Below, piece after piece: positions 12,420 through 64,000 of a stretch of 64,000 nucleotides of DNA. Below the pieces are notes generated by a model. It did not search any database. It was not told the DNA's origin and worked only from the letters and a program-made list of their open reading frames with translations. The stretch spans positions 128,001-192,000 of the forward strand of contig CM000150.2 of NCBI GenBank assembly GCA_000004695.1. Reading direction: 5' to 3'. This stretch comes from Dictyostelium discoideum. Lineage: Eukaryota. Both the position numbers and the translations under genes were made by a program. The stretch's first letter is position 1. Each line of letters begins with the position of its first letter.

Positions 12420-13121
12420 CACAGCAAAGAAAAATGCACCTTTAAAGCAAATTTAAAGTAAAGTTGATTTAAATTGGATTTAAATTGAATTTAAAGCCGC
12501 GTTTAAAAAATTCATTTTTAAGGTAATTTTTAAGGTAATTTTTAAGATATTTAAAAATGCCTTTAAAATTTGCTTAAAAATTTATTTTAAAGGTAATTTT
12601 AAAGGTGATTTTTAAGGTAATTTTTAAAATGATTTTTAAGATATTTAAAAATACCTTTAAAATTTATTTTAAATTAATTTTAAATAGGATTTAAAGTAGA
12701 TTTAAAGTAGATTTAAAGTGAATTTAAATTTCCTTAATATATAAATTTAAGGTTTTTAATAAAAAAGATCTAATTATAGATAAAAAAAATGGGGATAAAA
12801 TATTCTATCATTTTTAAATTTTCATCAAAGCAATCAAATGGTCGGGGGATCGAATCCCTTTTGGTAATTTTTGAAAAAATTAAAAAAAAAAAATTTAAAA
12901 AATTTATCCGTTAAATAACGGCTTCGAACTCAGGACCTCGCTTTTAAAGCGATTAAAAAGGTAATTTTAAAGGTAATTTTAAAGGTAATTTTAAAGGTGA
13001 TTTTAAAGTAACCTTAAAAATTACCTTTCAAATTACCTTTAAAATTGCTTTAATTCAGGACTTTAAAGCAAATTTAAATTTAATTTAAAGCGAATTTAAA
13101 GGTGGTTTTTTCTTTGCTGTG
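12420..13121. mobile_element. MITE-like non-coding TIR element (termini cacagcRaagaaaaa...ttttcttYgctgtg), DDT/thug-like Dictyostelium DNA-transposon derivative; family assignment uncertain
   Basis: ~28-bp imperfect terminal inverted repeats, subterminal ggtaattttaaagg repeats, internal T-arm-like motifs. Confidence 0.6.
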
Positions 13122-14027: not shown

Positions 14028-14735
14028 TAATGCCGATTTTTTTCATTTTTTGTTTTGTTTCTAATTTTATTTTGAGGATTTGAAAAATCTTGTTTATTTG
14101 GTTTTGAATTGTGAAAGTCAATAATATCTTTTTGATTTCTAAAATTTCCTTCTTTTAATAAATAATCGACACCTCTTGGTTTATCACATGTATGACATGA
14201 GAAATCATTGCAATTATAATGGTTAATCCTACAAGATGATCTAAATTCTGTTATATGCATTGTTAATCCATATGGTATAATTTCATAATCATTTTCATTA
14301 TTATCTTTAATTTTTAATTTATTATTAAATTGCGCTGAAAATAATTTTTTAATTGTTTGATGTATATTGTGAAACCATTCTTTTGGAACAATAAAAAAAA
14401 CAATTTTATTATTTTTAAAAAATGGACCAACATAATTTTCAAAATCTACCAATAATGTATAATCTGATCTACCTTGATGACTCATTCCTTCACTAAATAT
14501 TCTTAATAAAATAAATTTATATAAAATTGAATTTTTTATTTTATTAAACTGTTCTCCAGATTTATAATTTTTATAAATACCTTGCTCATAGTCTTTTGAG
14601 AAATCTAAATATTCTAAAAAATTTTTTTTTTCAATTAATAATTTAACAACTGAATAAATTTCAAAATAAAAAATTGACTCTTCATTTGTAACTCAAAAAG
14701 TGACCATCGATAGGTAAATTTGCTAAAAATATAGA
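14027..14735 (-). pseudogene. Fragment of a divergent paralogue of the 30505..33024 transposase (covers ~aa 255-485), truncated where the MITE terminus at 14027 begins
   Basis: ...SIFYFEI...LLRIFSEGM...GLTMHITEFRSSCRINHYNCNDFSCHTCDKPRG aligns to the full-length protein; stop codon directly abuts cacagcg. Confidence 0.55.
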
Positions 14736-14743
14736 ATCCATAC

Positions 14744-15715: not shown

Positions 15716-15719
15716 TATT

Positions 15720-22452: not shown

Positions 22453-22468
22453 AGCAGATCGGCAAGAT

Positions 22469-24615: not shown

Positions 24616-25334
24616 CACAGCGAAGAAAAAACCACCTTTAAAGCAAATTTAAAGCAAATTTGATTTAAATTGGATTTAAATTGAATTTAAAGCCGCGTTT
24701 AAAAAATTCATTTTTAAGGTAATTTTTAAGGTAATTTTTAAGATATTTAAAAATGCCTTTAAAATTTGCTTTAAATTAAATTTTTAAGCAATTTTTAAGG
24801 TAATTTTTAAGGTGATTTTTAAGATAATTTTAAGATATTTTAAAAATACCTTTAAAATTTATTTTAAAGTAATTTTAAAGAAGATTAAAAGTAGATTTAA
24901 AGTGAATTTAAATTTCCTTTAAACATAAATTTAAGGTTTTTAATAAAAAAGATCTAGTTTTAGAACAAAAAAATGGTGATAAAATATTCTATCATTTTTA
25001 AATTTTTCATCAAAGCAATCAAATGGTGTAATGGTTGATGAGACTATCCTTTGATAGAGGGTCGGGGGATCGAATCCCTTTTGGTAATTTTTGAAAAAAT
25101 TAAAAAAAAAATTTAAAAAATTTATCCGTTAAATAACGGCTTCGAACTCAGGACCTCGCTTTTAAAGCGATTAAAAAGGTAATTTTAAAGGTAATTTTAA
25201 AGGTAATTTTAAAGGTAATTTTAAAGTAACCTTAAAAATTACCTTTAAAATTACCTTTAAAATTGCTTTAATTCAGGACTTTAAAGCAAATTTAAATTTA
25301 AAGCGAATTTAAAGGTGGTTTTTTCTTCGCTGTG
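24616..25334. mobile_element. MITE-like TIR element copy
   Basis: cacagcgaag... to ...cttcgctgtg. Confidence 0.6.
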
Positions 25335-25469: not shown

Positions 25470-26825
25470 GAAAATTCCCTACAACAATTTGGTTTGGTTG
25501 AGTGAAAATTTGTAATATCATCTTGTTTTCATAATGTACCTGATTGGCAAATAAATAAACCATCTCTTGGCTTGTCACATGTGTGACATGAATATTCATT
25601 TGAATTATGTCCATTAAGTTTACACGATGCTCTAAATTCTGGAATATCCATTGTCAGTCCCAACGGTACAACATCTATTTGTTCGTTTTCAATAATTAAA
25701 TTAAAGCCAATACCAATAAAAGATGAAAACAATGTCATAATGGTTTGATGAAAATTAAGTAACCAATCATTTGGTACTACAAATAATAATAATTTATTGT
25801 TTTTAAATTCATTTCCAATATAATTTTCTATATCCAGCATTATAGAATAATCTTTCTTGTATTGACACCGCATACTATCAGTGAATATTCTAAGTAAAAC
25901 AATTTTATTTTTATTTTTATTTTTCGAATCTTTAAATTGTTGACCACTTTTATAATTTGTATAAATTCCAGTTTCAAAATGTGTATCAAAATCAATTCTA
26001 TTAAAAAATTGCTTTTTATTCAATAAAGTTTCTAATACTTTTTTAATTTCAAAATAAAAAATTGAGTGATCATAATTTTTATTTATAAATGTTTCTCCTT
26101 TTATTTGAAAATTTTCCATAAATAATTTATCCATATATAGAGGTGTGTATCTTATTAGATTTAAATTAGTTTATTTTTGTCAATAAAACTTTTAAATTTT
26201 TCAAGTAGCTTTAAACTTATTGAGTTTTCAATTCCCAACATTAAAAATTCAATTTCAGTTTCATTTAATTTTTTTTTGATTTTTTATTATCTAAATTATT
26301 ATTTTGATTATTATTTATTGGTTCATTTTGACCATTTTCATTATTTTCATTATTTTCATTATTTTTTGCTCCATTTTGATCTATTATATTTTCATCATCA
26401 CTATGTCGCAACCTAATTGTATCATGATTTTCTTCATTATCAATTGTTTGATTGTTTTCATTATTTTCATTATTTTCTTGATAAATAATTTCATCTTGGT
26501 TTTGGTTACATAAATGTTTACATGGGTCATCTATATCATTTGTTGGATATTTTATTTTTTCACCAGTAATATCCATTGATTTTTTATAAAAGCTATCTCT
26601 TTTTGGATTATTTGTAATAATTTTACTTTGTTCATTTTTACATTTTTTGGTGTTGAAATGTCCATTTCCATCATAAAATTGTTTATAAGAACGGTAATAT
26701 GAAAGACAAAATGGACATATATTTTTATGCATAATATAATGAATAATAATATTTTTAAAATTCTTTAATTTTTCTCTGCAATTAATGCATGATATGTTAT
26801 TTAAATTCATTTTGTTTGCAGTCAA
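25470..26825 (-). pseudogene. Degenerate copy of the zinc-finger transposase gene (frameshift between 26134 and 26265, nonsense TGA at 25529, 3' truncated)
   Basis: ORFs 26265..26825 and 25529..26134 match aa 1-180 and 230-430 of the 839-aa protein; homology continues past the stop (KQDDITNFHS). Confidence 0.65.
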
Positions 26826-26902
26826 ATGACCTATCAGTGAATAATTGAATTAATTATAATTAACTCAGCATATTTTAAAAAAGATGGAGTTATCCTAGAA
26901 AT

Positions 26903-27472
26903 CACAGCGAAGAAAAAACCACCTTTAAATTCGCTTTAAATTAAATTTAAATTTGCTTTAAAGTCCTGAATTAAAGCAATTTTAAAGGTAATTTTAAAGG
27001 TAATTTTTAAGGTTACTTTAAAATTACCTTTAAAATTACCTTTAAAATTACCTTTTTAATCGCTTTAAAAGCGAGGTCCTGAGTTCGAAGCCGTTATTTA
27101 ACGGATAAATTTTTTAAATTTTTTTTTTTAATTTTTCAAAAATTACCAAAAGGGATTCGATCCCCCGACCCTCTATTAAAGGATACTCTCATCAACCATT
27201 ACACCATTTGATTGCTTTGATGAAAAATTTAAAAATGATAGAATATTTTATCCCCATTTTTTTGTCTAAAATTAGATCTTTTTTTATTAAAAACCTTAAA
27301 TTTATTTTAAAGCGATTAAAAAGGTAATTTTAAAGGTAATTTTTAAGGTGATTTTAAAGTAACCTTAAAAATTACCTTTAAAATTACCTTAAAAATTGCT
27401 TTAATTCAGGACTTTAAATTCGCTTTAAATTAAATTTAAATTTGCTTTAAAGGTGGTTTTTTCTTCGCCGTG
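26903..27472. mobile_element. MITE-like TIR element copy, inverted orientation, terminus ~90 bp upstream of the minus transposase pseudogene
   Basis: cacagcgaagaaaaaaccacctttaaattcgc ... cttcgccgtg. Confidence 0.6.
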
Positions 27473-27725
27473 CTTAAAAATCACCTTTAAAATAAACTTT
27501 AAAATGACCTTGAAAATTACCTTTAAAATTATCTTTAAAATGACCTTTAAAATTACCTTTAAAATGCTCTTTAAAATTAAGTTTAAAATGCCCTTTAAAA
27601 TTAACTTTATAATGCTCTTTAAAATTACTTAAAAATATGATTAAAAATTATATTAATAATTACATTTTAAAGTTCCTTAAAAATTGAATTTTAAAGTTTA
27701 TTAATAATTACATTAAAGCACCTTA
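27473..27725. repeat. Fragment of a second MITE family (C-family), reverse complement of 34259-34507
   Basis: Direct comparison of the two stretches. Confidence 0.5.
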
Positions 27726-28865
27726 CACAGCAAAGAAAAATGCACCTTTAAAGCCAATTTCAAGCAAATACAATTTAAATTTGCTTTAAATTGGCTTTAA
27801 ATTTGCTTTTTAAAAAGGTAATTTTAAGGATATTTTTAAGGTCATTTAAAATTACATTAAAAATGACCTTTTAAATTTATTATAAAGCGGTTTTTAAATA
27901 ATGTTTTAATCACTTTATAATAAATTTAAAAAAGTTATTTTTAATGTAATTTAAAATAACTTATCAATCCTTTTTTAAGCTTTTATTACACAGCAAAGAA
28001 AAAACCACCTTTAAATTCGCTTTAAATTAAATTTAAATTTGCTTTAAAGTCCTGAATTAAAGCAATTTTAAAGGTAATTTTAAAGCGAATTTAAAGGTGG
28101 TTTTTTCTTTGCTGTGTAATAAAAGCTTAAAAAAGGATTGATAAGTTATTTTAAATTACATTAAAAATAACTTTTTTAAATTTATTATAAAGTGATTAAA
28201 ACATTATTAAAACCGCTTATAATAATTAAAAGGCATTTTATGTAATTTAAGACCTAAAAATCCTAAATACCTTTTTAATGGCTTTAAAAGCGAGGTCCTG
28301 AGTTCGAATCCGTTATTTACGAATAATTTTTTAAATTTTTTTTTTATTTTTCAAAAATTACCCAAAAGGGATTCGATCCCCCGACCCTCTATCAAAGGGT
28401 AGTCTCATCAACCATTACACCATTTGATTGCTTTGATGAAAAATTTAAAAATGATAGAATATTTTATCCCCATTTTTTTGTGCTAAAATTAGATCTTTTT
28501 TATTAAAAACCTTAAATTTATGTTTAAAGGAAATTTAAATTCACTTTAAATCTACTTTTAATCTACTTTAAATCCTATTTAAAATTAATTTAAAATAAAT
28601 TTTAAAGGTATTTTTAAATATCTTAAAAATTATCTTAAAAATTACCTTAAAAATCACCTTTAAAATCACCTTTAAAATCACCTTTAAAATTGCTTAAAAA
28701 TTTATTTTAAAGCAAATTTTAAAGGCATTTTTAAATATCTTAAAAATTACCTTAAAAATTACCTTAAAAATGAATTTTTTAAACGCGGCTTTAAATTCAA
28801 TTTAAATCCAATTTAAATCAACTTTTCTTTAAATTTGCTTTAAAGGTGCATTTTTCTTTGCTGTG
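27726..28865. mobile_element. Nested cluster of MITE-like copies including a 128-bp mini-element (27989-28116) flanked by inverted repeats
   Basis: Multiple cacagcaaag / ctttgctgtg termini; 27900-27996 is inverse of 28127-28225. Confidence 0.5.
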
Positions 28866-29471
28866 TAATTATATTTTTTAAAATACATTTTAAATGCATT
28901 TTAAATACATTTCAAATCAATTTTTACACTATTTATTCCAAATTTATTAAAAAAAAAAAAAAAAAATAAGAAAATAAAAAAAAAAAAAAAAATTAAGAAA
29001 ATTAAAAAAAAAAAAAACTAAAAAGATAACCAAATTAATTTTAATTCTTTATTTATTTGTTTCAGTGGCAATTGAATTCTATTATTATTATTTTTATTAA
29101 TTAATAAAAAATAAGTGTTTCAGTTGCCTTGGGTTTTATATTATTTTATTTTAAATTTTACTTCTCATTTCAAAAAGCGAAAAATATCAAAAAAAAAAAA
29201 AAAAAAATTTAATTATTTGTTTTGCATATTTATATTATAAGTATAAACATACATATAAAAAAAGATTTTTTATTTTTTATTTTTAATAATTAATAAACAA
29301 TTAACGAGTGCACAGGTATATTATTGCATTAGTGTAGTTTTACAATAAATTGGGCAGATTTTATAGTTTTTTTTTTAATATTTTAAAAAGAAAAAGGTAT
29401 AGACAGGGTCATAGGTTCCCCGTCATTTTTTGAAAATGGGGTATATCCCTCTAAATATAAAATTCTAAGTA

Positions 29472-30373
29472 CACAGCAAAGAAAAATGCACCTTTAAAGC
29501 AAATTTAAAGAAAAGTTGATTTAAATTAGATTTAAATTGAATTTAAAGCCGCGTTTAAAAAATTCATTTTTAAGGTAATTTTTAAGGTAATTTTTAAGAT
29601 ATTTAAAAATGCCTTTAAAATTTGCTTTAAAATAAATTTTTAAGCAATTTTAAAGGTGATTTTAAAGGTGATTTTAAAGGTAATTTTTAAGGTAATTTTT
29701 AAGATAATTTTTAAGATATTTAAAAATACCTTTAAAATTTATTTTAAATTAATTTTAAATAGGATTTAAAGTAGATTTAAAGTAGATTTAAAGTGAATTT
29801 AAATTTCCTTTAAACATAAATTTAAGGTTTTTAATAAAAAAGATCTAATTTTAGAACAAAAAAATGGTGATAAAATATTCTATCATTTTTAAATTTTTCA
29901 TCAAAGCAATCAAATGGTGTAATGGTTGATGAGAATACCCTTTGATAGAGGGTCGGGGGGATCGAATCCCTTTTGGTAATTTTAGAACAAAAAAATGGTG
30001 ATAAAATATTCTATCATTTTTAAATTTTTCATCAAAGCAATCAAATGGTGTAATGGTTGATGAGACTATCCTTTGATAGAGGGTCGGGGGATCGAATCCC
30101 TTTTGGTAATTTTTGAAAAATTAAAAAAAAAAATTTAAAAAATTTATCCGTTAAATAACGGCTTCGAACTCAGGACCTCGCTTTTAAAGCGATTAAAAAG
30201 GTAATTTTAAAGGTAATTTTAAAGGTAATTTTAAAGGTAATTTTAAAGGTAATTTTAAAGTAACCTTAAAAATCACCTTTAAAATTACCTTTAAAATTGC
30301 TTTAATTCAGGACTTTAAAGCAAATTTAAATTTAATTAAAAGCGAATTTAAAGGTGGTTTTTTCTTCGCTGTG
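29472..30373. mobile_element. MITE-like TIR element (with ~100-bp internal tandem duplication at 29900-30090) ending 131 bp upstream of the transposase ATG
   Basis: TIRs at both ends; duplication of the ...ggtgtaatggttgatgag...gggtcggggggatcgaatccc segment. Confidence 0.6.
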
Positions 30374-30504
30374 TACTAAATCATATATCTACTTTCTATA
30401 ATGCTAAAATTTGAATAAAATGAAAAAAAAAAAAAAAAAAACGTAAAAACTCGAGGAAAAAAAAAAAAAAAAATATTATTTTTAATTTCCAGCCAGCAAA
30501 CAAA

Positions 30505-33024
30505 ATGAATTTAAATAACATATCATGCATTAATTGCAGAGAAAAATTAAAGAATTTTAAAAATATTATTATTCATTATATTATGCATAAAAATATATGT
30601 CCATTTTGTCTTGCATATTACCGTTCTTATAAACAATTTTATGATGTAAATGGACATTTCAACACCAAAAAATGTAAAAATGAACAAAATAAAATTATTA
30701 CAAATAATCAAAAAAGAGATAGCTTTTATAAAAAATTAATGGATATTACTGGTGAAAAAATAAAATATCCAACAAATGATCCAGATGACCCATGTAAACA
30801 TTTATGTAACCAAAACCAAGATGAAATTTTTTATCAAGAAAATAATGAAAATAATGAAAATAATCAAACAATTGATAATGAAGAAAATCATGATATAATT
30901 GGGTTGGTACATAGTGAAGATGAAAACAATGAAATTAGAATAGATGAAAATGAAGCAAACATTAATAATGAAAATAATGAAAATAATGAAAATGAAAATG
31001 CTCAAAACGAACCAATAAATAATAATCTAAATAATAATTTAGATAATGAAAAATCAAAAAAAAAATTAAATGAAACTGAAATTGAATTTTTAATGTTGGG
31101 AATTGAAAACTCAATAAGTTTAAAGCTACTTGAAAAATTTAAAAGTTTTATTGACAAAAATAAAACCAATTTAAATCAAATAAGATACACACCTCAATAT
31201 ATGGATAAATTATTTATGGAAGATTTTCAAATAAAAGGAGAAACATTTATAAATAAAAATTATGATCACTCAATTTTTTATTTTGAAATTAAAAAAGTAT
31301 TAGAAACTTTATTAAATAAAAAGCAATTTTTTGAAAGAATAGATTTTGATACAGATTTTGAAACTGGAATTTATACAAATTATAAAAGTGGTCAACAATT
31401 TAAAGATTTAAAAAATAAAAATAAAAATAAAATTGTTTTACTTAGAATATTCACTGATAGTATGCAGTGTCAAAACAAGAAAGATTATACTATAATGCTG
31501 GATATAGAAAATTATATTGGAAATGAATTTAAAAATAATAAATTATTATTATTTGTAGTACCAAATGATTGGTTACTTAATTTTCATCAAACAATTAGGG
31601 CATTGTTTTCATCTTTTATTGGTAATGGCTTTAATTTAATTATTGAAAATGAACAAATAGATGTTGTACCGTTTGGACTGACAATGGATATTCCAGAATT
31701 TAGAGCATCGTGTAAACTTAATGGACATAATTCAAATGAATATGCATGTCACACATGTGACAAACCAAGAGATGGTTTATTTATTTGCAAATCAGGTACA
31801 TTAAGAAAACAAGAAGATATTACAAATTTTCACTCCAACAAACCAAATTATGCTGAATTAAATGCTGATATAGAATTAAAAAAAGTATGGGAAAAAAAAG
31901 CAAAAGATATTGGTATCAAAGGTGTGGACAGAGGGTGGGTCGAACCCTTGTCCATTAATTATTTAAAAACACAACCAGACATATTACATAATATTTTATT
32001 AGGTGTCGCACAAAGATGTTTAAATTACATTTTTGATAAATATAAAAATAAAATTGCAAATTTTTTAAATAATTTAAAAAATGCAAAAATAATAGATAAC
32101 AAACCAAAACCTTCAATTTCACTATTTGCAAATAAAACAAGGAAAGGAAGAGAGAATAGATCAATATTATATTACCTTTTAATATCAATTAAAAATCAAA
32201 TATCAAATGATGATTTTTTAATTATGGAACAATTAGTAACTATATGTTTTAAATTATATAGTGACTCTTTTGATGAAAATGATTTAAATTCACTTCAAGT
32301 ATTAATTGAATCGTTTAATGCAAAAGTAAATTTAATTATTGAAACAGAAATAATGAATTTCCACTTGTTGTTACATTATCCAATTTATATAAAAAATTGG
32401 GGTGCACCAAAATACACTTCAGCTGAAACTTTTGAAGCACAATTATCAAGAATTAAAAATTATTTAAAAAATAATACAAATAATAGGGATGAACAATATG
32501 AAAGGGTTACCAAATTAAACATGGTGAAATTTTTTAATTCAGTAGATAAATTAAAAAGTATTGAACCTGAAAGTACAGCATTAATTATTGGTAACAAAAT
32601 AAAAAATCCAGATAATTTAGATAACATAAAAATTAAATTAGATTCATTATTTCAAAATTATAAAAATATAACTTTTCACTCATCAATTAAAAATAATAAA
32701 GAAATATACAATGTTGGTGATGCAGTTGAAGTTGCATCAGATAATGAACTTTCAGGTAGATGGTCAGGTATTATCAATTCAATATCAATGATTGAAATGG
32801 ATGATAACATAATAAAACATGCAATATTATTAAATTATTTTGACAAATATGTTGGTGACCAATTTAATAAATACCATTTTCTTTCAAATGAATTAAATTA
32901 TATTACATATGATAATATTCTAAATAATGTTATACCAATTCAAATTGATGATACCAATTACCTTATTATTTACAAGTGCCACGATAAATTCTCGGCTTCA
33001 AAAAATAAAAAATCAAAAAATTAA
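30505..33024 (+). CDS. Putative DNA transposase (839 aa): N-terminal C2H2-like zinc finger (CINC...HYIMHKNICPFC), Asn/Glu-rich linker, DDE-type core with FGLTMDIPEF and ACHTCDKPRD motifs reminiscent of CACTA/En-Spm (CMC) superfamily; likely the DDT-type autonomous partner of the MITE-like units
   Basis: Long intact ORF in AT-rich background; two degenerate paralogues in window; superfamily assignment is inference from motif similarity, not searched. Confidence 0.6.
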   Translation: MNLNNISCINCREKLKNFKNIIIHYIMHKNICPFCLAYYRSYKQFYDVNGHFNTKKCKNEQNKIITNNQKRDSFYKKLMDITGEKIKYPTNDPDDPCKHLCNQNQDEIFYQENNENNENNQTIDNEENHDIIGLVHSEDENNEIRIDENEANINNENNENNENENAQNEPINNNLNNNLDNEKSKKKLNETEIEFLMLGIENSISLKLLEKFKSFIDKNKTNLNQIRYTPQYMDKLFMEDFQIKGETFINKNYDHSIFYFEIKKVLETLLNKKQFFERIDFDTDFETGIYTNYKSGQQFKDLKNKNKNKIVLLRIFTDSMQCQNKKDYTIMLDIENYIGNEFKNNKLLLFVVPNDWLLNFHQTIRALFSSFIGNGFNLIIENEQIDVVPFGLTMDIPEFRASCKLNGHNSNEYACHTCDKPRDGLFICKSGTLRKQEDITNFHSNKPNYAELNADIELKKVWEKKAKDIGIKGVDRGWVEPLSINYLKTQPDILHNILLGVAQRCLNYIFDKYKNKIANFLNNLKNAKIIDNKPKPSISLFANKTRKGRENRSILYYLLISIKNQISNDDFLIMEQLVTICFKLYSDSFDENDLNSLQVLIESFNAKVNLIIETEIMNFHLLLHYPIYIKNWGAPKYTSAETFEAQLSRIKNYLKNNTNNRDEQYERVTKLNMVKFFNSVDKLKSIEPESTALIIGNKIKNPDNLDNIKIKLDSLFQNYKNITFHSSIKNNKEIYNVGDAVEVASDNELSGRWSGIINSISMIEMDDNIIKHAILLNYFDKYVGDQFNKYHFLSNELNYITYDNILNNVIPIQIDDTNYLIIYKCHDKFSASKNKKSKN

Positions 33025-33142
33025 AAACTTTTTTACATAATTTTTACATTGTTATGTAAATAATGATTTTTTTTTTTTAATTTTTTTTCATTTTCGGGCA
33101 GACTGAAAAAGCGAAAATGATTTCAATACATATTTTTTTAAA

Positions 33143-33448
33143 ATGAATTCATCTGCAAATTTTATAGCACCAAATGGTAATGTACCTGATTTTAATCAAT
33201 CACCAATCCAAAGAAGAACAAACAATAATATTTCTATCGGAGATGAATCATTTAATAATTTGTCAATAGGTAATGTATTAGGAAATGCAAATGTTCCAAA
33301 CCCAATGGAAAACCAGAGAATAATAATTAGAAGAGTTCCAAGGCCAACTGTTCCACCAATCCAAGAAACAGTGCAAATAGCCACAAACCCACGTGTAACA
33401 TACATATTGGAATACGAAAGTCTTCAGAAAGTTTGTCAAAGTAAATAA
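33143..33448 (+). CDS. Hypothetical ORF (host gene exon or transposon accessory ORF), Asn/Pro-rich
   Basis: 101-aa ORF; possible GTAAAT donor at ~33444 and exon 33535-33777. Confidence 0.25.
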   Translation: MNSSANFIAPNGNVPDFNQSPIQRRTNNNISIGDESFNNLSIGNVLGNANVPNPMENQRIIIRRVPRPTVPPIQETVQIATNPRVTYILEYESLQKVCQSK

Positions 33449-33481
33449 TATTCAGATGGCGATGTATGTTACCAGATTAAT

Positions 33482-33516
<35 letters not shown>

Positions 33517-33797
33517 AAATAATTTATATAAATAGGTTTCAAATTTCTTTATTACTGGAATAATTAAACAAGCTGGTGGTAGTAACGAAGATTGTACCAG
33601 TCAAAATATTTTTGCAAGGTTAACGAAATGGGTAAGTAATAAGGAAAGTAACACAAGAACAAAAGTAGCTGACAGTTTAGCCATTTATTCAAAAGGTGAA
33701 AAAAACCACAATCTTAAAGTTTATATTTCCGATAGCCAAGTATTTTTTGGTAATGAAATTGTGTGTATAAATTAATATAATCAAAATTTACAAAATA

Positions 33798-33836
<39 letters not shown>

Positions 33837-33892
33837 GAAATATAGTTTTCCCCTGCTTTACTTTCTCTTTTTCTCAGCCACATTAATTATGA

Positions 33893-34112
33893 AAATTATC
33901 AAAATGATATTTTCATAAAAGAGTTTGTTGACTCTTGTAAAACAGGTGAAGAGAAACACTGGTACCCAGATTCAGTTCCTTTAATAAAGAGATTAATTTC
34001 AATATTAAATGATTTTAGTAGTAAATTTGACTCTAAGGCTAAAATGAGAAAAGATGCACAAGAAGCTTTTCAATTTCCTCATTCTGCACTTTACTTAAAT
34101 TCTTCCCAATAA
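33893..34112 (+). CDS. Terminal exon of a host gene (...HINYENYQNDIFIKEFVDSCKTGEEKHWYPDSVPLIKRLISILNDFSSKFDSKAKMRKDAQEAFQFPHSALYLNSSQ*)
   Basis: Preceded by pyrimidine tract and AG (ttctcag|), Dictyostelium codon usage; same exon recurs inverted at 63840-64000. Confidence 0.4.
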
Positions 34113-34258
34113 AAGTTTTAAATTAATTTTTAAAATTTAAAAATAAATTTTATTATTAAAAAATAATATATCTGTGTATTTTATTGTTCACATAAAATTT
34201 TATTTCATACTATAGTTTTAAAATAATTTTTAAATTTTTTTTATTTATTTTTGTAGCA

Positions 34259-34507
34259 TTATAAATAAGGTGCTTTTAAATGTAATTATTAATAAACTTT
34301 AAAATTCAATTTTTAAGGAGCTTTAAAATGTAATTATTAATATAATTTTTAATCATATTTTTAAGTAATTTTAAAGAGCATTATAAAGTTAATTTTAAAG
34401 GGCATTTTAAAGGTAATTTTAAAGGTAATTTTAAAGGTCATTTTAAAGGTAATTTTCAAGGTCATTTTAAAGTTAATTTTAAAGGTAAGTTTAAAGGTGA
34501 TTTTAAA
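34259..34507. repeat. C-family MITE part, interrupted by the Skipper insertion
   Basis: Other half at 63518-63667 ends with TIR cacagcgatgaaaattacacc(rc); TTAAA at both junctions. Confidence 0.5.
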
Positions 34508-34897
34508 TGTAAAAGTCACTCACACTAATCTTCAATCCATTGTCACATTTGTTCAATCTTAAATCAAACAGTCCAATCTTTAAAGTAATGTATTTTAATA
34601 TGAAGGATAGAAAGAGTGAAAGACTAATATCATAAAAGTAAACATACATAAAAGAGATAATTAAAAGTAAGGGCGTTATGAAACTAAACCGAAAATCAGA
34701 ATTTTTATTATTTTTTTTAAATTTTAATTTAATTTAATTTTTTTTAATTTAATTTTTTATTTTTTTGACTGAAAAAATAAAAAATTAAAAAATAAAAATA
34801 AAAATTAAATGAAATATTTTTACATGGAGATGCGCGAATTTGTTACGTTGTTGAGCTCATACTAACTTTAAATTAATTTAGTTTTGAGTCTCTAACA
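34508..34897 (-). repeat. Skipper 3' LTR (390 bp) followed by polypurine tract GAAGGAAGGGGAAGG at 34898-34912 (minus sense)
   Basis: Identical to 41115-41504; boundary defined by divergence from flank and by copy-3 LTR. Confidence 0.85.
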
Positions 34898-34940
34898 CCT
34901 TCCCCTTCCTTCTTTAGGCTAGCTATGGCTCAGAGGTGGA

Positions 34941-37900
34941 CTATAAACTCTTGGGTGTAACTTTTCTTCCTGATCTAGTTGTTTTAATTTGTAAACTAAG
35001 ATCAAGTTCATCATCCTCACTTGAAGTATTTTGATTTCTTGATTTTCTTTTCTTTGATTGGTTTCTTTGATTTGAGATGGAGTTTTGTTGTCTTGGAGTA
35101 ATTGGTTGCAATGTTTGAGAACTTTGAACTTCTTGGGAGAGTGGAGGTGACACAATTGGCTCAACGGCTTCTGTAGTTACATTCTCTCTTTCTCTTCTTG
35201 AGTTCAATTGTTTCTTCTGCACGTTATTCCAATACTCTCTGACTAACTCTTCACAGTCTGTATCGACTTCTTTGATCCATTCAGGTTCTGGGTAACCTTT
35301 GAACTTCACTAGGTACATCTTTTTGACTTTATCGTGATTGAGAATACTTTCAACTTCGTAACTTGCTTCGTCCATCTCCTCAGGTTCGGGCATCGATATC
35401 TCTTCTCTTAACCACTCACTGTCCTCGTATAGTTTTACGATTTGATCCTTGTTGAACACATTGTGTTTCTTTGGATAACCTACTAAATCGAGTGTTACAT
35501 TATTACCATGAACGGCAGTGATTATGAATGGTCCACAATTCTTGGATTCAAGTTTGTGAGAGATTAGATCTTTTGAAAGATTAGTTTGGAAGAATTTTCT
35601 TTTAACCATCACCTTTTCTCCGACTACGAAGATAACATCACCACGACCTCGGTTGTAATACTTTTGAGCATTGATTTGAGCATCTAGTATATTATCACGG
35701 ACAATCTTTTTGATGTTGCTCATTGGTATACGAGTCTTTGTTAATGAATTGAAATGATTAACGGGAGTTGGTGGATTGAATCCATATACGATTTGGAATG
35801 GTGACATCTTTGTAGACTTGCTCATTGATGAGTTCATTGCAAATTCAATAAGTGGAATGATATCTGACCAATTCTCCCCATACTCTGTTGAGGCTTTAGT
35901 TAATATTCTAATAATTTCTCTATTCATTCTTTCAGTTTGACCATCAGCTTGTGCTCTGTGTGCCACAGTCATCTTGAGTTTAGAATCCATCGTCTTTGCC
36001 CATCTCTCCCATATTTCTGAAAGGAATCTTGGATCTCTATCGGAGACGATTGTTCTTGGATAACCATGGAGTCTGAACACATGATTCAACAATAATTGAG
36101 CAGTATGTTGGGCATCTATTGTCTTATGACATGGAACTATATGAACCATTTTAGATAATCTACAAACAATGACACAAACTTGATCGACTTCAACTGTAAA
36201 TCCGTTTATTGCATACATTGTTTTTGGTAGCGATAAGAAATCGATTGATATATCTCTCCAAACTTCAAAGGGAATTTCTAAACTTTGGAGTATACCATTA
36301 TCTTTACGGTTAATGTTCAATTGACATGTTGCACAAGACTTTATGTACCTCTTGATAATAGAAAACATTTCTTTGAAATAGTAATCTTGTCTTATATTAT
36401 TGTATGTGATATCTAAAGCGTGATGACCACTATATTTGGTATCGTGATATTCTCTAATGACGGTATGAATAGTTTCTTTATCTATGATGATTAATTTCTT
36501 GAACCCATCTTCACTAAGGTAACAGATATCATTAATTTCTTCAATGCATAAATTTGGATTCTTTTTCATCTCTAATAGCCATTGAGAATTGATTTGTTCT
36601 TCCTTAATTTTATTTAAAAACGATTCATCCCATTGGAAATTATCATATTTACGAGATAAGAAATCAGCTATACCATTCTTTTTACCACTTATATGTCTTA
36701 ATTCATAATCAAATTCTTTAATATATTTCATATAATTATCTTGTCTCTTTGTGAACGGTTTATCGTTTGACTTATTGATAATATATGTAAGATTTTGGTG
36801 ATCAGTGTAGATTGAAACCTTTTTACCAATTAATAAATGTTGAAACTTCTTTAGAGAATCAATGATTGAAAGGAACTCTCTATCACCTATGCTGTACCTC
36901 TTTTGAGTATCAGTAAGTTTTCTACTATGAAACCAAATGACTTTGAATTTATTACCTTGAATTTGATATAATACACCTGATAATGCTTTATCACTAACAT
37001 CACAATACAAGTGAAAACTACCATTGTTTAGATTATTATTATCTGAATGGATTGGCATGTCTGTTGATGCTTTAACCTTTTCGATATCTATTGGTATGGA
37101 GTTATCTTGTTCAATTGGAATAGCGACAATATTTTCACCTTCAAACTCTTTCTTTAGATTATTGAATTCTTTGAGTGATTCATCAGAAAGTGTTTTCTTG
37201 TTTTTTCCTTTTGATTCTTTGGAAAGGTGATAGGTTTTTTCAGCGTAATTTTCAATGTGTCTCCTGAAGAATCCAAAAAGACCTAATGCAGCTTCAGCTT
37301 CTTTGGCGTTTCTTGGTTCAGGTAACTCAGAGATAGCTCTAACCTTTGCAGCTCTTGGAGATATACCATCTTTATGAATGTGGAAACCAAGGAAATCTAC
37401 TTCAGTCTTTAACATTTCACTCTTTTCTCTTGAAATGAATAATAGGTACTTTCTACAATATAGAAGCATTCTAATGATTTCAATGAAATGTACCATGTAG
37501 TCGAGTTTTGAATGAACCAAAAGATCATCAAAGTATTGTAATAAACTTTTGATTTTTCCAAATATTTCGACCATCAATCTGGCGAATGTGGATGGAGAGT
37601 TGACTAAACCTTGTGGCATTCTAGTATATTCAAATTTACCAATATGTGTAATGAAAGCGGTGTACTTTGCGTGTTCTGGATTAATTAACACTTGGAAATA
37701 ACCCATAATCATGTCAAACTTTGAGAAAAGCTTTGAATCTTTACATTGATTTAAAAGACTATCAACCGGAGTGAATGGATGATCGTCTCTAACAGTGACT
37801 TTATTTAGTTGACGATAGTCGTGGACTACACGCCATGAATCTCTCTTCTTTAATAACATGATTGGAGATGAGTAATTTGATTCTGATCTTTTGATAATAC

Positions 37901-39224
37901 CTAAATCTATAAATTTGAGAACCATTTCTTCGACATGTCTCTTATGATCATCTGTTGAATAATAGATTTGTTTCTTTGTTGGTTCAACATCTTGATCTTT
38001 CTTTAATATGATATTATGTATGATATTACCTCTTCTGGAATTGTTAATCTGATCTGGAATATCAGGAAGTTTATCTACTATAACATCTTCGAATGAATCA
38101 TTAATGAAATCACGTACTGCTTGTATCTCTTCTTCTTCTGGATTAGTTTTAACCAGTATATCACAAAGTTGTGATGGGATGCTTTCAACAAACTTTGTAA
38201 CTTGTTCTTTGATATCTTCATCATCATCTAGTAGATTATGTGACTGTGACTGATTATCATTGGATACGGTAACATGTTTTCTTGGAGCTTTTACATTACA
38301 ATGTAATTGATTCGACTGTTGATAATTAATTTTGTATGTACTGTTATTCAACTTGATTATTTTATCTTTTTGGTTAATGATAGAGTCCTTAAGGATATCA
38401 TTACCGAAAAGTACATCAATGATATCCAATTCTATAATAAAGAAGTTATGAATTTCATTGTTAACTTGTATATTGATTTGTTCAACAAACTCTTCTTTGA
38501 CGTCTAGTAGCGGGAAGTTAATCTTGGCTTTCGTTTTGTGAACGTGGTTCTTCATATCTTTTGAAATCAACCTCTTATTGATTAAACTAACATTACTTCC
38601 AGTATCGAGAATTAATTTGAATTGTTTTTCTTTGGAATGAGAGTTAATTATAATCTTGGGTTTATCCATGTTTTCTCTGTTTGGAACGATTAAACATTTT
38701 AGAGTCGGAATGAGAGCAGTATCACTTGTACCAGTACTATGTAATAATGAGATGATTGGTTTGTTTGTTTCTTTATCGAATTTAATTGTGTAAAGCAATT
38801 CATCTTCTTCATCATTAATTAATTCTTTACTAGAATTTAATATCTTTGGACGATTGAATATGTTAACAGTATAGTTTTTATCTTGAACATTTGTTAACTC
38901 TGTTGGAGTATTAAATTCAATCTTCTGTGGTTTATACTTCATCTCTGATTCAACAGCTTTTGGAATTGGAACGGTTGTATCAGGAACTAGTTTTATACCA
39001 TATGAGTCTTTGACGTATTCTTTAAGTTTGTTGATGTTTTTATGAACATCATGTTGCTGGCTTTGTTGATGTAACTGTTTAACAATGTTTTGATTATAAA
39101 AAGAGTTAAGAGTATAAAGTGAATCTTTGTTCACTGGGTAATCATTATCCTCAAGGTGATGATATTGTGAAATTTTATAATTTTTATTTAAAATCTTTGA
39201 CTTGGACTCATCACCTTCATCGAG
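34941..39224 (-). CDS. pol: Skipper Pol polyprotein: protease (DTGS ~38596), RT (YFDD ~37520), RNase H, integrase (HHCC 36320-36450, DDE), C-terminal chromodomain (~35240-35350); in frame with gag through a single UGA
   Basis: LILDTGSNVSLI, QYFDDLLVHS, HHALD...CATCQ, YEVESILNHDKVKKMYLVKFKGYPEPEWIKEV. Confidence 0.85.
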   Translation of the reverse strand, partial: LDEGDESKSKILNKNYKISQYHHLEDNDYPVNKDSLYTLNSFYNQNIVKQLHQQSQQHDVHKNINKLKEYVKDSYGIKLVPDTTVPIPKAVESEMKYKPQKIEFNTPTELTNVQDKNYTVNIFNRPKILNSSKELINDEEDELLYTIKFDKETNKPIISLLHSTGTSDTALIPTLKCLIVPNRENMDKPKIIINSHSKEKQFKLILDTGSNVSLINKRLISKDMKNHVHKTKAKINFPLLDVKEEFVEQINIQVNNEIHNFFIIELDIIDVLFGNDILKDSIINQKDKIIKLNNSTYKINYQQSNQLHCNVKAPRKHVTVSNDNQSQSHNLLDDDEDIKEQVTKFVESIPSQLCDILVKTNPEEEEIQAVRDFINDSFEDVIVDKLPDIPDQINNSRRGNIIHNIILKKDQDVEPTKKQIYYSTDDHKRHVEEMVLKFIDLGIIKRSESNYSSPIMLLKKRDSWRVVHDYRQLNKVTVRDDHPFTPVDSLLNQCKDSKLFSKFDMIMGYFQVLINPEHAKYTAFITHIGKFEYTRMPQGLVNSPSTFARLMVEIFGKIKSLLQYFDDLLVHSKLDYMVHFIEIIRMLLYCRKYLLFISREKSEMLKTEVDFLGFHIHKDGISPRAAKVRAISELPEPRNAKEAEAALGLFGFFRRHIENYAEKTYHLSKESKGKNKKTLSDESLKEFNNLKKEFEGENIVAIPIEQDNSIPIDIEKVKASTDMPIHSDNNNLNNGSFHLYCDVSDKALSGVLYQIQGNKFKVIWFHSRKLTDTQKRYSIGDREFLSIIDSLKKFQHLLIGKKVSIYTDHQNLTYIINKSNDKPFTKRQDNYMKYIKEFDYELRHISGKKNGIADFLSRKYDNFQWDESFLNKIKEEQINSQWLLEMKKNPNLCIEEINDICYLSEDGFKKLIIIDKETIHTVIREYHDTKYSGHHALDITYNNIRQDYYFKEMFSIIKRYIKSCATCQLNINRKDNGILQSLEIPFEVWRDISIDFLSLPKTMYAINGFTVEVDQVCVIVCRLSKMVHIVPCHKTIDAQHTAQLLLNHVFRLHGYPRTIVSDRDPRFLSEIWERWAKTMDSKLKMTVAHRAQADGQTERMNREIIRILTKASTEYGENWSDIIPLIEFAMNSSMSKSTKMSPFQIVYGFNPPTPVNHFNSLTKTRIPMSNIKKIVRDNILDAQINAQKYYNRGRGDVIFVVGEKVMVKRKFFQTNLSKDLISHKLESKNCGPFIITAVHGNNVTLDLVGYPKKHNVFNKDQIVKLYEDSEWLREEISMPEPEEMDEASYEVESILNHDKVKKMYLVKFKGYPEPEWIKEVDTDCEELVREYWNNVQKKQLNSRRERENVTTEAVEPIVSPPLSQEVQSSQTLQPITPRQQNSISNQRNQSKKRKSRNQNTSSEDDELDLSLQIKTTRSGRKVTPKSL

Positions 39225-40818: not shown

Positions 40819-41114
40819 GAGCATTATTATTAAATTAATTGATACAATCTTGTTTTATATTACTTTATAAAAGATGCATGTTTACAATGTGAGTAGGAAG
40901 TGTCGTTGTACCGCCTAAGCAGTACAGCGTTAATCTTGCAAACAGAAGGGCCATTGTAATGCATTTTTATTTTGTTTTAAATACTACTGTTATTCCTCTA
41001 ATCTGAAGAGTCGACTTCTTCATCATGAGGTGTCATTGTATACGAAATATAAGGATTGTATCTAATTATTTGTTTTAATGTATTTGTTTTATGTTAAAAT
41101 TAGAAAAAAAAAAG

Positions 41115-51583: not shown

Positions 51584-53899
51584 CACAGCAAAGAAAAATG
51601 CACCTTTAAAGCAAATTTAAAGTAAAGTTGATTTAAATTGGATTTAAATTGAATTTAAAGCCGCGTTTAAAAAATTCATTTTTAAGGTAATTTTTAAGGT
51701 AATTTTTAAGATATTTAAAAATGCCTTTAAAATTTGCTTAAAAATTTATTTTAAAGGTAATTTTAAAGGTGATTTTTAAGGTAATTTTTAAAATGATTTT
51801 TAAGATATTTAAAAATACCTTTAAAATTTATTTTAAATTAATTTTAAATAGGATTTAAAGTAGATTTAAAGTAGATTTAAAGTGAATTTAAATTTCCTTA
51901 ATATATAAATTTAAGGTTTTTAATAAAAAAGATCTAATTATAGATAAAAAAAATGGGGATAAAATATTCTATCATTTTTAAATTTTCATCAAAGCAATCA
52001 AATGGTCGGGGGATCGAATCCCTTTTGGTAATTTTTGAAAAAATTAAAAAAAAAAAATTTAAAAAATTTATCCGTTAAATAACGGCTTCGAACTCAGGAC
52101 CTCGCTTTTAAAGCGATTAAAAAGGTAATTTTAAAGGTAATTTTAAAGGTAATTTTAAAGGTGATTTTAAAGTAACCTTAAAAATTACCTTTCAAATTAC
52201 CTTTAAAATTGCTTTAATTCAGGACTTTAAAGCAAATTTAAATTTAATTTAAAGCGAATTTAAAGGTGGTTTTTTCTTTGCTGTGAAATATTTTGCTTTT
52301 TTTTTTTTTTTTTTTTTTTTATTATTTTTTTTTACCAACACATAACGACTCTTCCTTACTTATAATATATAAGCAAATAACATTAAAAAAATTGTTAAAT
52401 TATTTACATAACTTTTACGTAAAAACGAACGGATTTTTATTTTTATTTTTATTTTTTTTCAATTTTTTTTTTTTTTGTTTCGGTTATTATTTTTCAGACT
52501 TAAATTATTATTTATAAATTAAATATAAAAAATAATATTGCATCATCTGGAAATGGTAATTATTTAAATTGATATTATCCAACTTCGCTTATTTTAAATA
52601 AAAATGAAACTGCACTAAATCAAAACTGGTAAGGTAAGATGATTTTTAAGGTAATTTTTAAGATAATTTTTAAGATATTTAAAAAATACCTTTAAAATTT
52701 ATTTTAAATTAATTTTAAATAGGATTTAAAGTAGATTTAAAGTATATTTAAAGTGAATTTAAATTTCCTTTAAGTATAAATTTAAGGTTTTTAATTAAAA
52801 AGATCCATTTTTAGATCAAAAAAATGGGGATAAAATATTCTACCATATTTAAATTTTCATCAAAGCAATCAAATGGTGTAATGGTTGATGAGACTATCCT
52901 TTGATAGAGGGTCGGGGGATCGAATCCCTTTTGGTAATTTTTGAGAAATTAAAAAAAAAAATTTTAAAAAATTTATCCGTTAAATAACGGCTTCGAACCC
53001 AGGACCTCGCTTTTAAAGCGATTAAAAAGGTAATTTTAAAGGTAATTTTAAAGGTAATTTTTAAGGTGATTTTAAAGTAACCTTAAAAATTACCTTTAAA
53101 ATTACCTTAAAAATTGCTTTAATTCAGGACTTTAAATTCGCTTTAAATTAAATTTAAATTTGCTTTAAAGGTGGTTTTTTCTTCGCTGTGTTAATGCCGA
53201 TTTTTTTCATTTTTTGTTTTGTTTCTAATTTTATTTTGAGGATTTGAAAAATCTTGTTTATTTGGTTTTGAATTGTGAAAGTCAATAATATCTTTTTGAT
53301 TTCTAAAATTTCCTTCTTTTAATAAATAATCGACACCTCTTGGTTTATCACATGTATGACATGAGAAATCATTGCAATTATAATGGTTAATCCTACAAGA
53401 TGATCTAAATTCTGTTATATGCATTGTTAATCCATATGGTATAATTTCATAATCATTTTCATTATTATCTTTAATTTTTAATTTATTATTAAATTGCGCT
53501 GAAAATAATTTTTTAATTGTTTGATGTATATTGTGAAACCATTCTTTTGGAACAATAAAAAAAACAATTTTATTATTTTTAAAAAATGGACCAACATAAT
53601 TTTCAAAATCTACCAATAATGTATAATCTGATCTACCTTGATGACTCATTCCTTCACTAAATATTCTTAATAAAATAAATTTATATAAAATTGAATTTTT
53701 TATTTTATTAAACTGTTCTCCAGATTTATAATTTTTATAAATACCTTGCTCATAGTCTTTTGAGAAATCTAAATATTCTAAAAAATTTTTTTTTTCAATT
53801 AATAATTTAACAACTGAATAAATTTCAAAATAAAAAATTGACTCTTCATTTGTAACTCAAAAAGTGACCATCGATAGGTAAATTTGCTAAAAATATAGA
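51584..53899. mobile_element. Duplicates of MITE-like copies (51584-52285; 52638-53191) and transposase fragment (53191-53899, minus)
   Basis: Offset +39164. Confidence 0.55.
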
Positions 53900-54883
53900 A
53901 TCCATACACAGCGAAGAAAAAACCACCTTAAAAGCAAATTTAATCTAAAAAAAAAACAAAAAAAGTATTATTTTAGATTTCTTCAACTTCATCAATAATA
54001 TCAATGCTTTCAAAACCAATCACCAGTTCTTTTAAAATAAATTGATACTACAATTAAATAATAGCTGGTAAGTTAATATAATTTTTTTTTAAAAAAAAAA
54101 AAAATTAAAAAAAAAAAAAAAATAAATAATAATAATAAAATAAAATAGATAGACTAATTTGAAAAATAATAATTATATTTTAGGTTACCTTTCTTATTAT
54201 ACCAACAACCACTTCTTTTCAATCAAATTGATACTTCACTTATATAATAACTGGTAAGTCAATATAATTTTTTTTTTTTAAAAAAAAAATAATAATATAA
54301 AATAAAGAGATTAATATAATTTAAACAATTATATTTTAGGTTGTTTCTTCTTTTATTAGAACCTGTAAAGTAAATGCTTTTGGTACAAATTATAATGGAA
54401 ATAAAGTTCTGCTTTTCAAATTAGTCAATTATAAATGTTGTATTACCATTAAATAAAAAAAATTTCTGATTTCAAATACTTTTACTTTTTAATTAATTCT
54501 TTTTTTTTTTTTTTTTTTTTTAAATTTATTTTAAATTATTATTATAAAATGTTATTTTTAATTTTTATTTTTAAGTATTCTTATTAAGTGAACTTTATAA
54601 TTACCCTTAATAATTACCCTTATTAATTATAATTAATAATTCCACTTAATAGTTATACTTAATAATTATACTTAATAATTTTAATTATTAATTATATTTT
54701 ATTATTATACTTAATAATTATGCTTAATAAATATACTTTTTAATTATACTTAATAAATATACTTAATAAATATACTTTTTAATTATACTTATTAATTATA
54801 CTTAATAAATATACTTAATAATTATACTTAATAATTATACTTAATAAATATACTTATTAAGTATACTTAATAATAGTACTATT

Positions 54884-63667: not shown

Positions 63668-64000
63668 CTGTGTATTAATAATGCTACAAAAATAAATAAA
63701 AAAAATTTAAAAATTATTTTAAAACTATAGTATTAAATAAAATTTTATGTGAACAATAAAATACACAGATATATTATTTTTTAATAATAAAATTTATTTT
63801 TAAAGTAGAAACTTTTATTGGGAAGAATTTAAGTAAAGTGCAGAATGAGGAAATTGAAAAGCTTCTTGTGCATCTTTTCTCATTTTAGCCTTAGAGTCAA
63901 ATTTACTACTAAAATCATTTAATATTGAAATTAATCTCTTTATTAAAGGAACTGAATCTGGGTACCAGTGTGACTCTTCACCTGTTTTACAAGAGTCAAC
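63668..64000 (-). other. Inverted copy of host gene 3' UTR and terminal exon (rc of ~33930-34258)
   Basis: Near-identical reverse complement; exon part 63840-64000. Confidence 0.7.

Follow-up and report, generated by a model that had tools for sequence, protein, structure and literature searches.

We find that ORF1, an open reading frame (ORF) of 839 codons in a 64,000-nucleotide stretch of Dictyostelium discoideum DNA (contig CM000150.2, positions 128,001 to 192,000; the whole stretch is called the window below), very probably encodes the DDE transposase of a DNA transposon that has terminal inverted repeats (TIRs). On this reading the element is most likely DDT-A/DDT-B, its short units are DDT-S, and the enzyme is placed, as a divergent member, in the CMC group (CACTA/Mirage/Chapaev) and has a RAG1/Transib-type fold. 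Three lines of evidence that are independent of one another confirm the CMC assignment: profile homology, fold, and the ends of complete elements. An original prediction, made from the letters of the window alone, had proposed a transposase gene with a CACTA/CMC-like signature at this position, and our profile search, hhalign comparison and structural model agree with it.

ORF1 is uninterrupted, starts with ATG and has a single exon. At 22% GC, with a per-codon stop probability of ~0.10, the chance that 839 codons stay open is ~3e-40, and comparison with the intact copy from D. cf. discoideum (locus L001) gives a ratio of nonsynonymous to synonymous substitution (dN/dS) of 0.24, which indicates purifying selection. 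Together these two values show that ORF1 is a real gene. Its features, in window coordinates, are the following.

30505..33024, plus strand: ORF1, 839 codons.
30526-30675, plus strand: putative C2H2 and C2HC fingers, amino acids (aa) 8-57, from the sequence pattern.
ORF1 aa 100-190: linker rich in Asn and Glu, with 31 N and 18 E in 91 residues.
ORF1 aa ~300-650: RNase-H-like DDE core.
31456, plus strand: D318, first catalytic Asp, motif LLRIFTD318SM.
31687, plus strand: D395, second catalytic Asp, motif GLTMD395IPEF, part of VVPFGLTMDIPEF.
31747-31758, plus strand: C415/C418, motif AC415HTC418DKPR, in ACHTCDKPRDG.
31987, plus strand: H495, motif DILH495NILLG, part of ILHNILLGVAQRCLNY.
32362-32376, plus strand: H620/H624, an H-x3-H pair.
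32434, plus strand: E644, catalytic Glu.
32602-33021, plus strand: all-beta, possibly BAH-like C-terminal domain, aa 700-839, from a medium-quality model.

The intact frame, the C2H2-type finger, the Asn/Glu-rich linker and the motifs quoted in the original prediction are all present. Read directly, the first finger has the C2H2 pattern C8-x2-C11-x12-H24-x3-H28, and a C2HC finger, C32-x2-C35-x15-H51-x5-C57, follows it. Both fingers are kept in the two subfamilies into which the ORF1 family divides (~50% aa identity between them), and the best match of Pfam zinc-finger models to the N-terminal region, at E 0.12, is located on the second finger. The family is multi-copy, with dozens of members per genome, many of them frameshifted, and is confined to D. 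discoideum and D. cf. discoideum. All 25 of the 25 close protein matches of ORF1 are 'hypothetical proteins' of these two, AX4 genes among them; an exact-sequence look-up of the 839-aa protein itself found no record.

To place the protein, we built a core profile from ORF1 aa 195-705, covering both subfamilies, and searched it exhaustively against 1.84 billion representative proteins. The search returned 14 Dictyostelium copies and ~95 other proteins at E 4e-9 to 1e-3, and most of these other proteins match over the DILHN...NFHLLLHYP...WGAP...FE region of the core. A Pfam scan of 92 distant matches found Transposase_21 (14), DUF4218 (12), DUF1258 (9) and Plavaka (3), with no other recurrent families. 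All four families belong to the CACTA/Mirage/Chapaev world.

A less circular test used the family of one Transposase_21-positive match, P0112, which we compared with a core profile made from Dictyostelium sequences only. Relatives of P0112 number 242, from cnidarians, molluscs, hemichordates and insects, and almost all of them carry the annotation PF02992; 38 aligned members make up the metazoan Transposase_21 profile A6. In hhalign, the Dictyostelium-only core matches A6 with a probability of 96.6% and E 6.6e-10 over 446 columns, and the key residues pair as follows.

A6 D197 (NTDG) aligns to ORF1 D318.
A6 D284 (DLPA) aligns to ORF1 D395.
A6 C303/C306 (C(2)C) aligns to ORF1 C415/C418.
A6 H383 (MH) aligns to ORF1 H495.
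A6 H520/H524 (H(3)H) aligns to ORF1 H620/H624.
A6 E544 (FE) aligns to ORF1 E644.

Each of these A6 residues is invariant within the A6 family. In a 49-sequence alignment D395, H620, H624, G633 and E644 are invariant, and C415, C418, R434 and H495 are nearly so. The pairs C415-x2-C418 and H620-x3-H624 sit between D395 and E644, which is the CMC/Transib/RAG1 signature. One motif assignment changes as a result of the alignment. The original prediction had compared VVPFGLTMDIPEF with the LxLxxDGxNPF signature of CACTA transposases; the motif of the first Asp is instead LLRIFTD318SM, and GLTMD395IPEF within VVPFGLTMDIPEF is the second-Asp block, the equivalent of 'GTaDLPA'/'tinDfPAy'.

The predicted structure provides the second line of evidence. 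For the core, AlphaFold2 run on the 49-sequence alignment gives a model with a mean predicted local distance difference test score (pLDDT) of 77 and a predicted TM-score (pTM) of 0.80. The order of elements in the model is strands, D, a helical insertion, and then E: D318 lies in strand 115-128 (beta-1), D395 just past strand 189-200 (beta-4), and E644 in a late helix, 447-461 (model numbering). A Foldseek search of the PDB with this model places RAG1 first (E 7.7e-10, TM 0.55), HzTransib next (E 2.5e-6), and then Hermes.

This ranking raises the question of whether ORF1 could be a Transib/RAG-like (ProtoRAG-type) transposase instead of a CMC member. The element termini begin with CACAG, like the CACAGTG heptamer of the recombination signal sequence (RSS), and the core profile run against PDB sequences reaches zebrafish RAG1, only at E 0.18, in an alignment that is weak yet in register at the second Asp, the CxxC and the H...E block. 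To our knowledge, however, no CMC transposase structure has been solved, so RAG1 is simply the nearest solved relative, and its rank does not speak for the Transib superfamily. Among the distant relatives with significant matches, the families carried are Transposase_21, DUF4218, DUF1258 or Plavaka and never RAG1/Transib, and it is the Transposase_21 family that hhalign recovers. The element also has no RAG2-like partner gene, and its target duplication is 2 bp, against 5 bp in Transib/ProtoRAG. We therefore regard a Transib/RAG-like enzyme as improbable and retain the CMC assignment.

The third line of evidence comes from the ends of complete elements. The original prediction had called for a genome search for full TIR-bounded copies, and four related loci compared with the window supplied them, each with both ends and 2-bp target duplications.

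L002, 9218-14251: complete element, 5034 bp.
L001 (D. cf. discoideum), 8979-14558: complete element, 5580 bp.
L003, 9229-19739: complete element, contains insertions.
L004, 6434-14226: subfamily-2 element, ~7.8 kb, ends CACAGGGGC...GCCCCTGTG, TA duplication.

Complete subfamily-1 elements are thus ~5.0-5.6 kb and share one layout: left end, a leader of ~0.8-1.0 kb, ORF1, a second gene (ORF2), an array of 12-bp repeats, and the right end. Their ends read 5'-CACAGC...GCTGTG-3' within imperfect inverted repeats of ~30-40 bp, with matches at 29-39 of 40 positions. We count 16 occurrences of the terminus motif CACAGC[A/G]A[A/T]GAAAA in the window, where 0.02 would be expected. Inside each inverted repeat lies the subterminal core ACCTTTAAA, which recurs every 12 bp, in either orientation, close to both ends; the window contains 79 copies of it, where 2.6 would be expected, and all of them are inside these elements. 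Subterminal repeats of En/Spm are protein-binding sites, and by analogy the ACCTTTAAA repeats are natural candidates for such sites here.

Target duplications of 2 bp flank all three autonomous copies L002, L001 and L003 (TG, AA and TC) and five or six of eight short units (TA, AA, TA, TT, GG). Both the CAC...GTG termini and the 2-bp length of the duplication are within what has been described for the CACTA/Mirage/Chapaev/Transib clade (PMC12730594). We also considered a PIF/Harbinger-type two-gene element with 3-bp TAA/TTA duplications, since the flanks of several units read TTA...TAA or GTA...TAC and resemble 3-bp TAA duplications, and the element has two ORFs. A table of all termini refutes the 3-bp TAA duplication: the outer base is inverted and only the inner 2 bp are direct, TG, TC and GG included, and a 3-bp duplication fits only once among the tabulated termini. 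With a fold and profiles of CMC/RAG1 type, and no Myb/SANT match in ORF2, a PIF/Harbinger origin has practically no likelihood left.

The same duplications bear on the KDZ group (Kyakuja/Dileera/Zisupton), which the original prediction had suggested checking. Three distant matches fit the Plavaka Pfam model, and Plavaka was formerly grouped near KDZ; it is now placed with CACTA/Transib (PMC12730594). No KDZ-family model recurs among the 92 scanned matches, and Zisupton duplications are 8 bp (PMC12730594) as against 2 bp here. Membership in KDZ is accordingly extremely unlikely, and the CMC assignment stands. We looked for the two outcomes that the original prediction had named as counting against it, profile hits to a non-transposase family and a lack of TIR-bounded copies in the genome, and found neither.

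An important caveat to the CMC assignment is that several observations weigh against it or blur it. Searched with the whole ORF1 protein, Pfam yields no family at E<=1 and the PDB no sequence; because these whole-protein searches are empty, ORF1 is tied to CMC through profiles and structure. Its identity to any CMC protein is <20%, and ORF2 has no recognisable similarity to TnpA of CACTA elements. At the level of the termini, the unit pairs 24616-25334 and 26903-27472 lack matching 2-bp flanks, and local divergence blurs the target duplication at the empty site of the nested unit described below. ORF1 also scores below the gathering threshold of the curated models PF02992 (Transposase_21) and PF13960 (DUF4218), and so falls outside both families with their present limits.

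ORF2 encodes ~275 aa in three exons in intact copies, as judged from spliced reconstructions from L002, L001 and L004, and is kept in both subfamilies. Against Pfam it gives no significant family. In L003, ORF2 is split by a 5.3-kb insertion (L003 12764-18057) that consists of two tandem repeats, whose pieces correspond to window 11764-12250, 13106-13469 and 14954-15768; this insertion probably derives from a subfamily-2 element as a non-autonomous form with a long array of tandem repeats. In L001 (D. cf. discoideum), an intact ORF of 411 aa (L001 14650-15885) begins directly outside a DDT-like terminus. An overlapping gene call carries the Pfam annotation DDE_1 (pogo/Tigger type), and near-perfect inverted partial copies lie at L001 7740-8475. 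This ORF belongs to a separate transposon family, outside the element studied here.

The copy in the window is damaged at both ends. Its remaining parts outside ORF1 are listed below.

28879..29471, plus strand: residual 5' leader; 28949-29463 matches L001 9325-9844, and 29180-29460 matches L002 9588-9845 and L003 9587-9860.
29472..30373, plus strand: unit U, a nested element of 902 bp with both termini and a TA duplication (29470-29471 / 30374-30375).
30374..30504, plus strand: proximal leader, 131 bp, between unit U and the ATG, colinear with L002 and L003.
33143..34109, plus strand: ORF2 pseudogene, located by tblastn against the window, with an in-frame stop at 33449-33451.
34357..34512, plus strand: right subterminal array, 13 copies of the 12-bp repeat ATTTTAAAGGTA.

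The main colinearity with the related loci runs from 30369 to 34513, where Skipper, a retrotransposon with long terminal repeats (LTRs), starts. On the left, the copy is cut at the inner edge of an inverted duplication (28878/29459) and lacks its own terminus, which in intact copies lies ~280-350 bp further out (L001 8979, L002 9218, L003 9229). On the right, Skipper (from ~34505) cuts the element ~250 bp before its terminus: homology to L002 ends at 34513, equivalent to L002 14003, and the right terminus of L002 is at 14251. We looked for the rest of the right end in the window and found none. The stop in ORF2 is a TAA where intact copies have Tyr (CQSK*YSDG vs CQSKYYTYG). With the left end lost to the inverted duplication, the right end cut off by Skipper and a stop in ORF2, the window copy cannot move. 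It could still supply transposase, because ORF1 is intact and under purifying selection. The ORF1 copies of L002 and L003 are frameshifted, and the copy with the intact transposase gene is the one whose second gene is broken.

An intact gene under purifying selection, in a copy that lacks its own ends and has a broken ORF2, is also what one would expect if ORF1 had been domesticated as a host gene and were no longer part of a mobile element, and its annotation says only 'hypothetical protein'. Against domestication, each genome has dozens of copies, divided between two subfamilies and many of them frameshifted; other copies have inverted ends and target duplications on either side; the positions of copies vary from assembly to assembly; and the gene is set in a transposon graveyard. 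Purifying selection is also expected of an active transposon family compared between species. Domestication is thus very unlikely, and we continue to treat ORF1 as the transposase gene of a transposon.

Unit U explains an arrangement on which the original prediction had built. A miniature inverted-repeat transposable element (MITE)-like unit was said to end 131 bp upstream of the ATG, and such units were taken to be the terminal regions of the autonomous element. The distance is correct, from the unit end at 30373 to the ATG (30374-30504). However, L002 and L003 have an uninterrupted site where unit U sits, and removing unit U and one TA from the window makes it colinear with both loci across the junction. 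This empty site shows that unit U is a nested insertion in the 5' leader and not the end of the ORF1 copy. What survives of the terminal-region idea is that unit U, a complete element in its own right, has ends and subterminal sequence in common with the autonomous element: its first 180 bp and last 175 bp are ~77% identical to that element's two ends.

The prediction had also drawn support from the same geometry at a degenerate minus-strand copy. The spacing there is 92 bp, between a terminus at 26903 and an ATG at 26810, as described. The geometry repeats because this region is an inverted duplication of 29459-31849, nested unit included, and so it is not independent support. The duplicated parts, together with other relatives in the window, are as follows.

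25486..26819, minus strand: decayed inverted duplicate of the ORF1 start, aa 1-448, frameshifted; by blastn equal to 31849-30496, 95%.
26903..28865, minus strand: inverted duplicate of unit U, in the parts 26903-27312 and 28265-28865.
14066..14741, minus strand: subfamily-2 transposase fragment; by tblastn ORF1 aa ~207-448, 50%, and P0012 aa 207-434, 87%.
53230..53905, minus strand: third fragment, identical to 14066-14741.
63673..64000, minus strand: 3' part of ORF2 of another copy, which abuts a unit terminus at 63672 and runs off the window.

Overall, window 25486-28878 corresponds to 29459-31849. In tblastn the minus copy spans 25487-26810 (minus strand), aa 1-448, at ~90% identity in three frames, and two blastn blocks cover the unit and its surroundings (26903-27274 equals 30373-29977 at 92%; 28341-28878 equals 29995-29459 at 97%). 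Later insertions at 27313-28264, a 128-bp mini-element among them, split the duplicate of unit U. We rejected a reading of the minus copy and its flanking units as an internally deleted element with long inverted repeats, because the arms include 13 bp outside unit U and the flanks of 24616-25334 differ. The original prediction had described two decayed paralogues. Decayed relatives do exist, and the divergent fragment at 14066-14741 (50% to ORF1, 87% to P0012) bears out its proposal of at least two subfamilies; the minus copy, however, is an inverted duplicate of the ORF1 copy itself, and the fragment at 53230-53905 had been missed. The subfamily-2 fragment lies exactly between outward-facing termini at 14026 and 14743 (also 53190-53907). 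The breakpoints of the two truncated ORF1 relatives are no more than ~12 codons apart, near aa 448-460.

Short units occur elsewhere in the window as well.

12420..13121, plus strand: short unit, 702 bp, with a 2-bp AA duplication.
24616-25334, 27726-28865 and 51584-52285: further short units.
27989-28116: mini-element, 128 bp, with TA/TA flanks and two 'right-type' ends, in which 39 of 40 inverted-repeat positions match.

Unit U, which is probably DDT-S-like, ends in imperfect inverted repeats of ~30 bp (CACAGCAAAGAAAAA... / ...TTTTTCTTCGCTGTG) and carries 12-bp subterminal repeat arrays. Because they share ~30-bp ends and ~180 bp of subterminal sequence with the autonomous element, the short units are likely to be its non-autonomous passengers. 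The 128-bp mini-element lies inside the 1140-bp unit 27726-28865, both of whose ends are 'left-type', and the two look like foldback-like derivatives of the same family. Unit U also contains two 131-bp tandem copies of a tRNA-like piece with sequences that resemble A and B boxes (29846-30117, GGTGTAATGGT ... GGGGGATCGAATCCC); another piece, at 30160-30185, is T-arm-like and reversed. Neither ARAGORN nor Rfam calls the tRNA-like piece as a tRNA. Rfam 'miRNA' matches in unit U are far below threshold and reflect hairpins of inverted 12-mers, and we discarded them. A TRE5-A insertion has been published upstream of the A/B-box in DDT-B (PMC9012585), which suggests that such pieces can attract tRNA-gene-targeting retrotransposons.

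Taken together, these observations suggest a model for how the element would move. The N-terminal C2H2/C2HC fingers, ORF2, or both would attach to the ACCTTTAAA repeats and so pair the element's ends. Nicking at the CAC termini, excising the element and joining it into a staggered cut of 2 bp would fall to the DDE site. If RAG1, Transib and hAT are a guide, a hairpin would probably be left on the flanking DNA after excision. Short units of 0.7-0.9 kb, which keep the ends and the repeats, could be mobilised in trans.

The surroundings of ORF1 are themselves built from transposons. The large flanking ORFs belong to DIRS-1 (tyrosine-recombinase domains) and Skipper (reverse transcriptase, RNase H, integrase, chromodomain). 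Skipper is present as a tandem LTR-internal-LTR-internal array in which 34505-39886 equals 41111-46493 at 99.6%, with a third copy after the second of two assembly gaps (58570-63267); its pol ORF gives a weak Chromo match. The block 46599-58469 equals 7435-19305 (11.9 kb, 99.8% identical), and two 100-N gaps, 46494-46593 and 58470-58569, bound it, so this duplication, including the second subfamily-2 fragment, may be assembly redundancy. Three consecutive ORFs of 173, 206 and 196 aa at 21314-23059 lie in the GC-richest part of the window (~0.43), and a Pfam scan of them found no family. D. discoideum centromeres consist of ~49% DIRS, 19% DDT, 10% Skipper and 3% Tdd, and the make-up of the window agrees with this composition (PMC2665215).

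Glockner et al. reportedly described DDT-A, DDT-B and DDT-S in 2001 as 'putative DNA transposons'. We consider it likely that the element is DDT-A/DDT-B, with the short units as DDT-S, on the basis of species, centromeric context, size and A/B-box. The species is the same, and DDT is strongly enriched in DIRS-1/Skipper centromere clusters (PMC2665215). DDT also has autonomous forms of ~5-5.5 kb as well as short forms and an A/B-box-like sequence; the DDT-B consensus is 5471 bp and carries the A/B-box (PMC9012585). A 2017 review states that DDT transposases resemble no known transposase (PMC5633606), which is consistent with the empty Pfam result for ORF1, and DDT are still termed putative DNA transposons (PMC5633606, PMC4559204, PMC9012585). 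Our literature searches found no published superfamily assignment of DDT, although a Repbase classification may already exist. The superfamily assignment and the possible C-terminal BAH-like domain appear to be new. If the DDT identity is true, what is added is the superfamily, the catalytic residues, the 2-bp duplication and the fold.

The feature is real and mostly ordinary: a repeat family that is already known has a transposase gene here, in a centromere region built from transposons. The CMC/RAG1-fold placement makes the orphan DDT repeats a testable system in a genetically tractable haploid organism, with named catalytic and zinc-binding residues, CACAG ends, a 2-bp duplication, candidate binding repeats and non-autonomous passengers. 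It extends CMC elements to Amoebozoa. For annotation, dozens of D. discoideum 'hypothetical proteins', including AX4 DDB_G0294226 and DDB_G0267336, should read transposase genes.

The C-terminal domain allows a more speculative proposal. Residues 700-839 of ORF1 are kept in both subfamilies and absent from distant CMC relatives, and a model built from seven sequences is all-beta and of medium quality (pLDDT 63, pTM 0.64). A PF01426 match was sought, and at the sequence level the domain has no BAH support. We tentatively suggest, as a possibility that we ourselves find doubtful, that a lineage-specific BAH-like chromatin-reader domain might tether integration to centromeric heterochromatin, and that the family, with its CACAG termini and RAG1-like zinc site, might represent a CMC lineage of Amoebozoa that branches deeply. 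If true, such a tether would explain why DDT makes up ~19% of centromeres as against ~1% elsewhere in the genome, and would offer a concrete mechanism for a DNA transposon helping to build transposon-based centromeres; a deep-branching CMC family would be useful to root the relationship of CMC, Transib and RAG1. A parallel would be the integrase of chromoviruses such as Skipper, a mobile-element enzyme with a C-terminal chromatin-reader-type beta domain in an element that accumulates in centromeric heterochromatin. The difference is that a retroviral-type integrase there carries a chromo fold, whereas a DDE transposase here would carry a BAH-like fold.

Comparison with the CMC elements themselves (CACTA/En-Spm TnpD, Mirage, Chapaev) shows the same DDE triad on an RNase-H-like fold. 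The DxxH 'DILHN' and 'HxxxHxP...G(A/P)...FE' blocks align residue for residue. The elements also have in common that their termini read 5'-CAC...GTG-3', that the target duplication is short, that short repeats lie near the ends and that there is a second gene. ORF1 differs in having fingers of C2H2/C2HC pattern at its N-terminus where the A6 animal family has a CxxC...CxxxxC cluster, and in its extra, possibly BAH-like C-terminal domain. The length of the target duplication, 2 bp, fits the wider clade (2-5 bp) and not classical CACTA (3 bp). Mirage duplications are likewise 2 bp, and the same length is found for PlavakaA and the TA-duplicating ESTA lineage (PMC12730594).

RAG1, the ProtoRAG RAG1L and Transib offer a further comparison. 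In sequence there is no significant similarity to ORF1, as noted above, and only the fold is in common; target duplications differ in length, and neither a nonamer-like element nor a RAG2-like partner was identified in the element. The Cys2/His2 pair on either side of the insertion domain is the same, at almost identical spacing. D395 and C415 are 20 residues apart in ORF1 and the equivalent D708 and C727 are 19 apart in mouse RAG1, while the distance from the last His to the catalytic Glu is 20 in both (H624 to E644; H942 to E962). The termini of the element, like the RSS heptamer, begin with CACAG.

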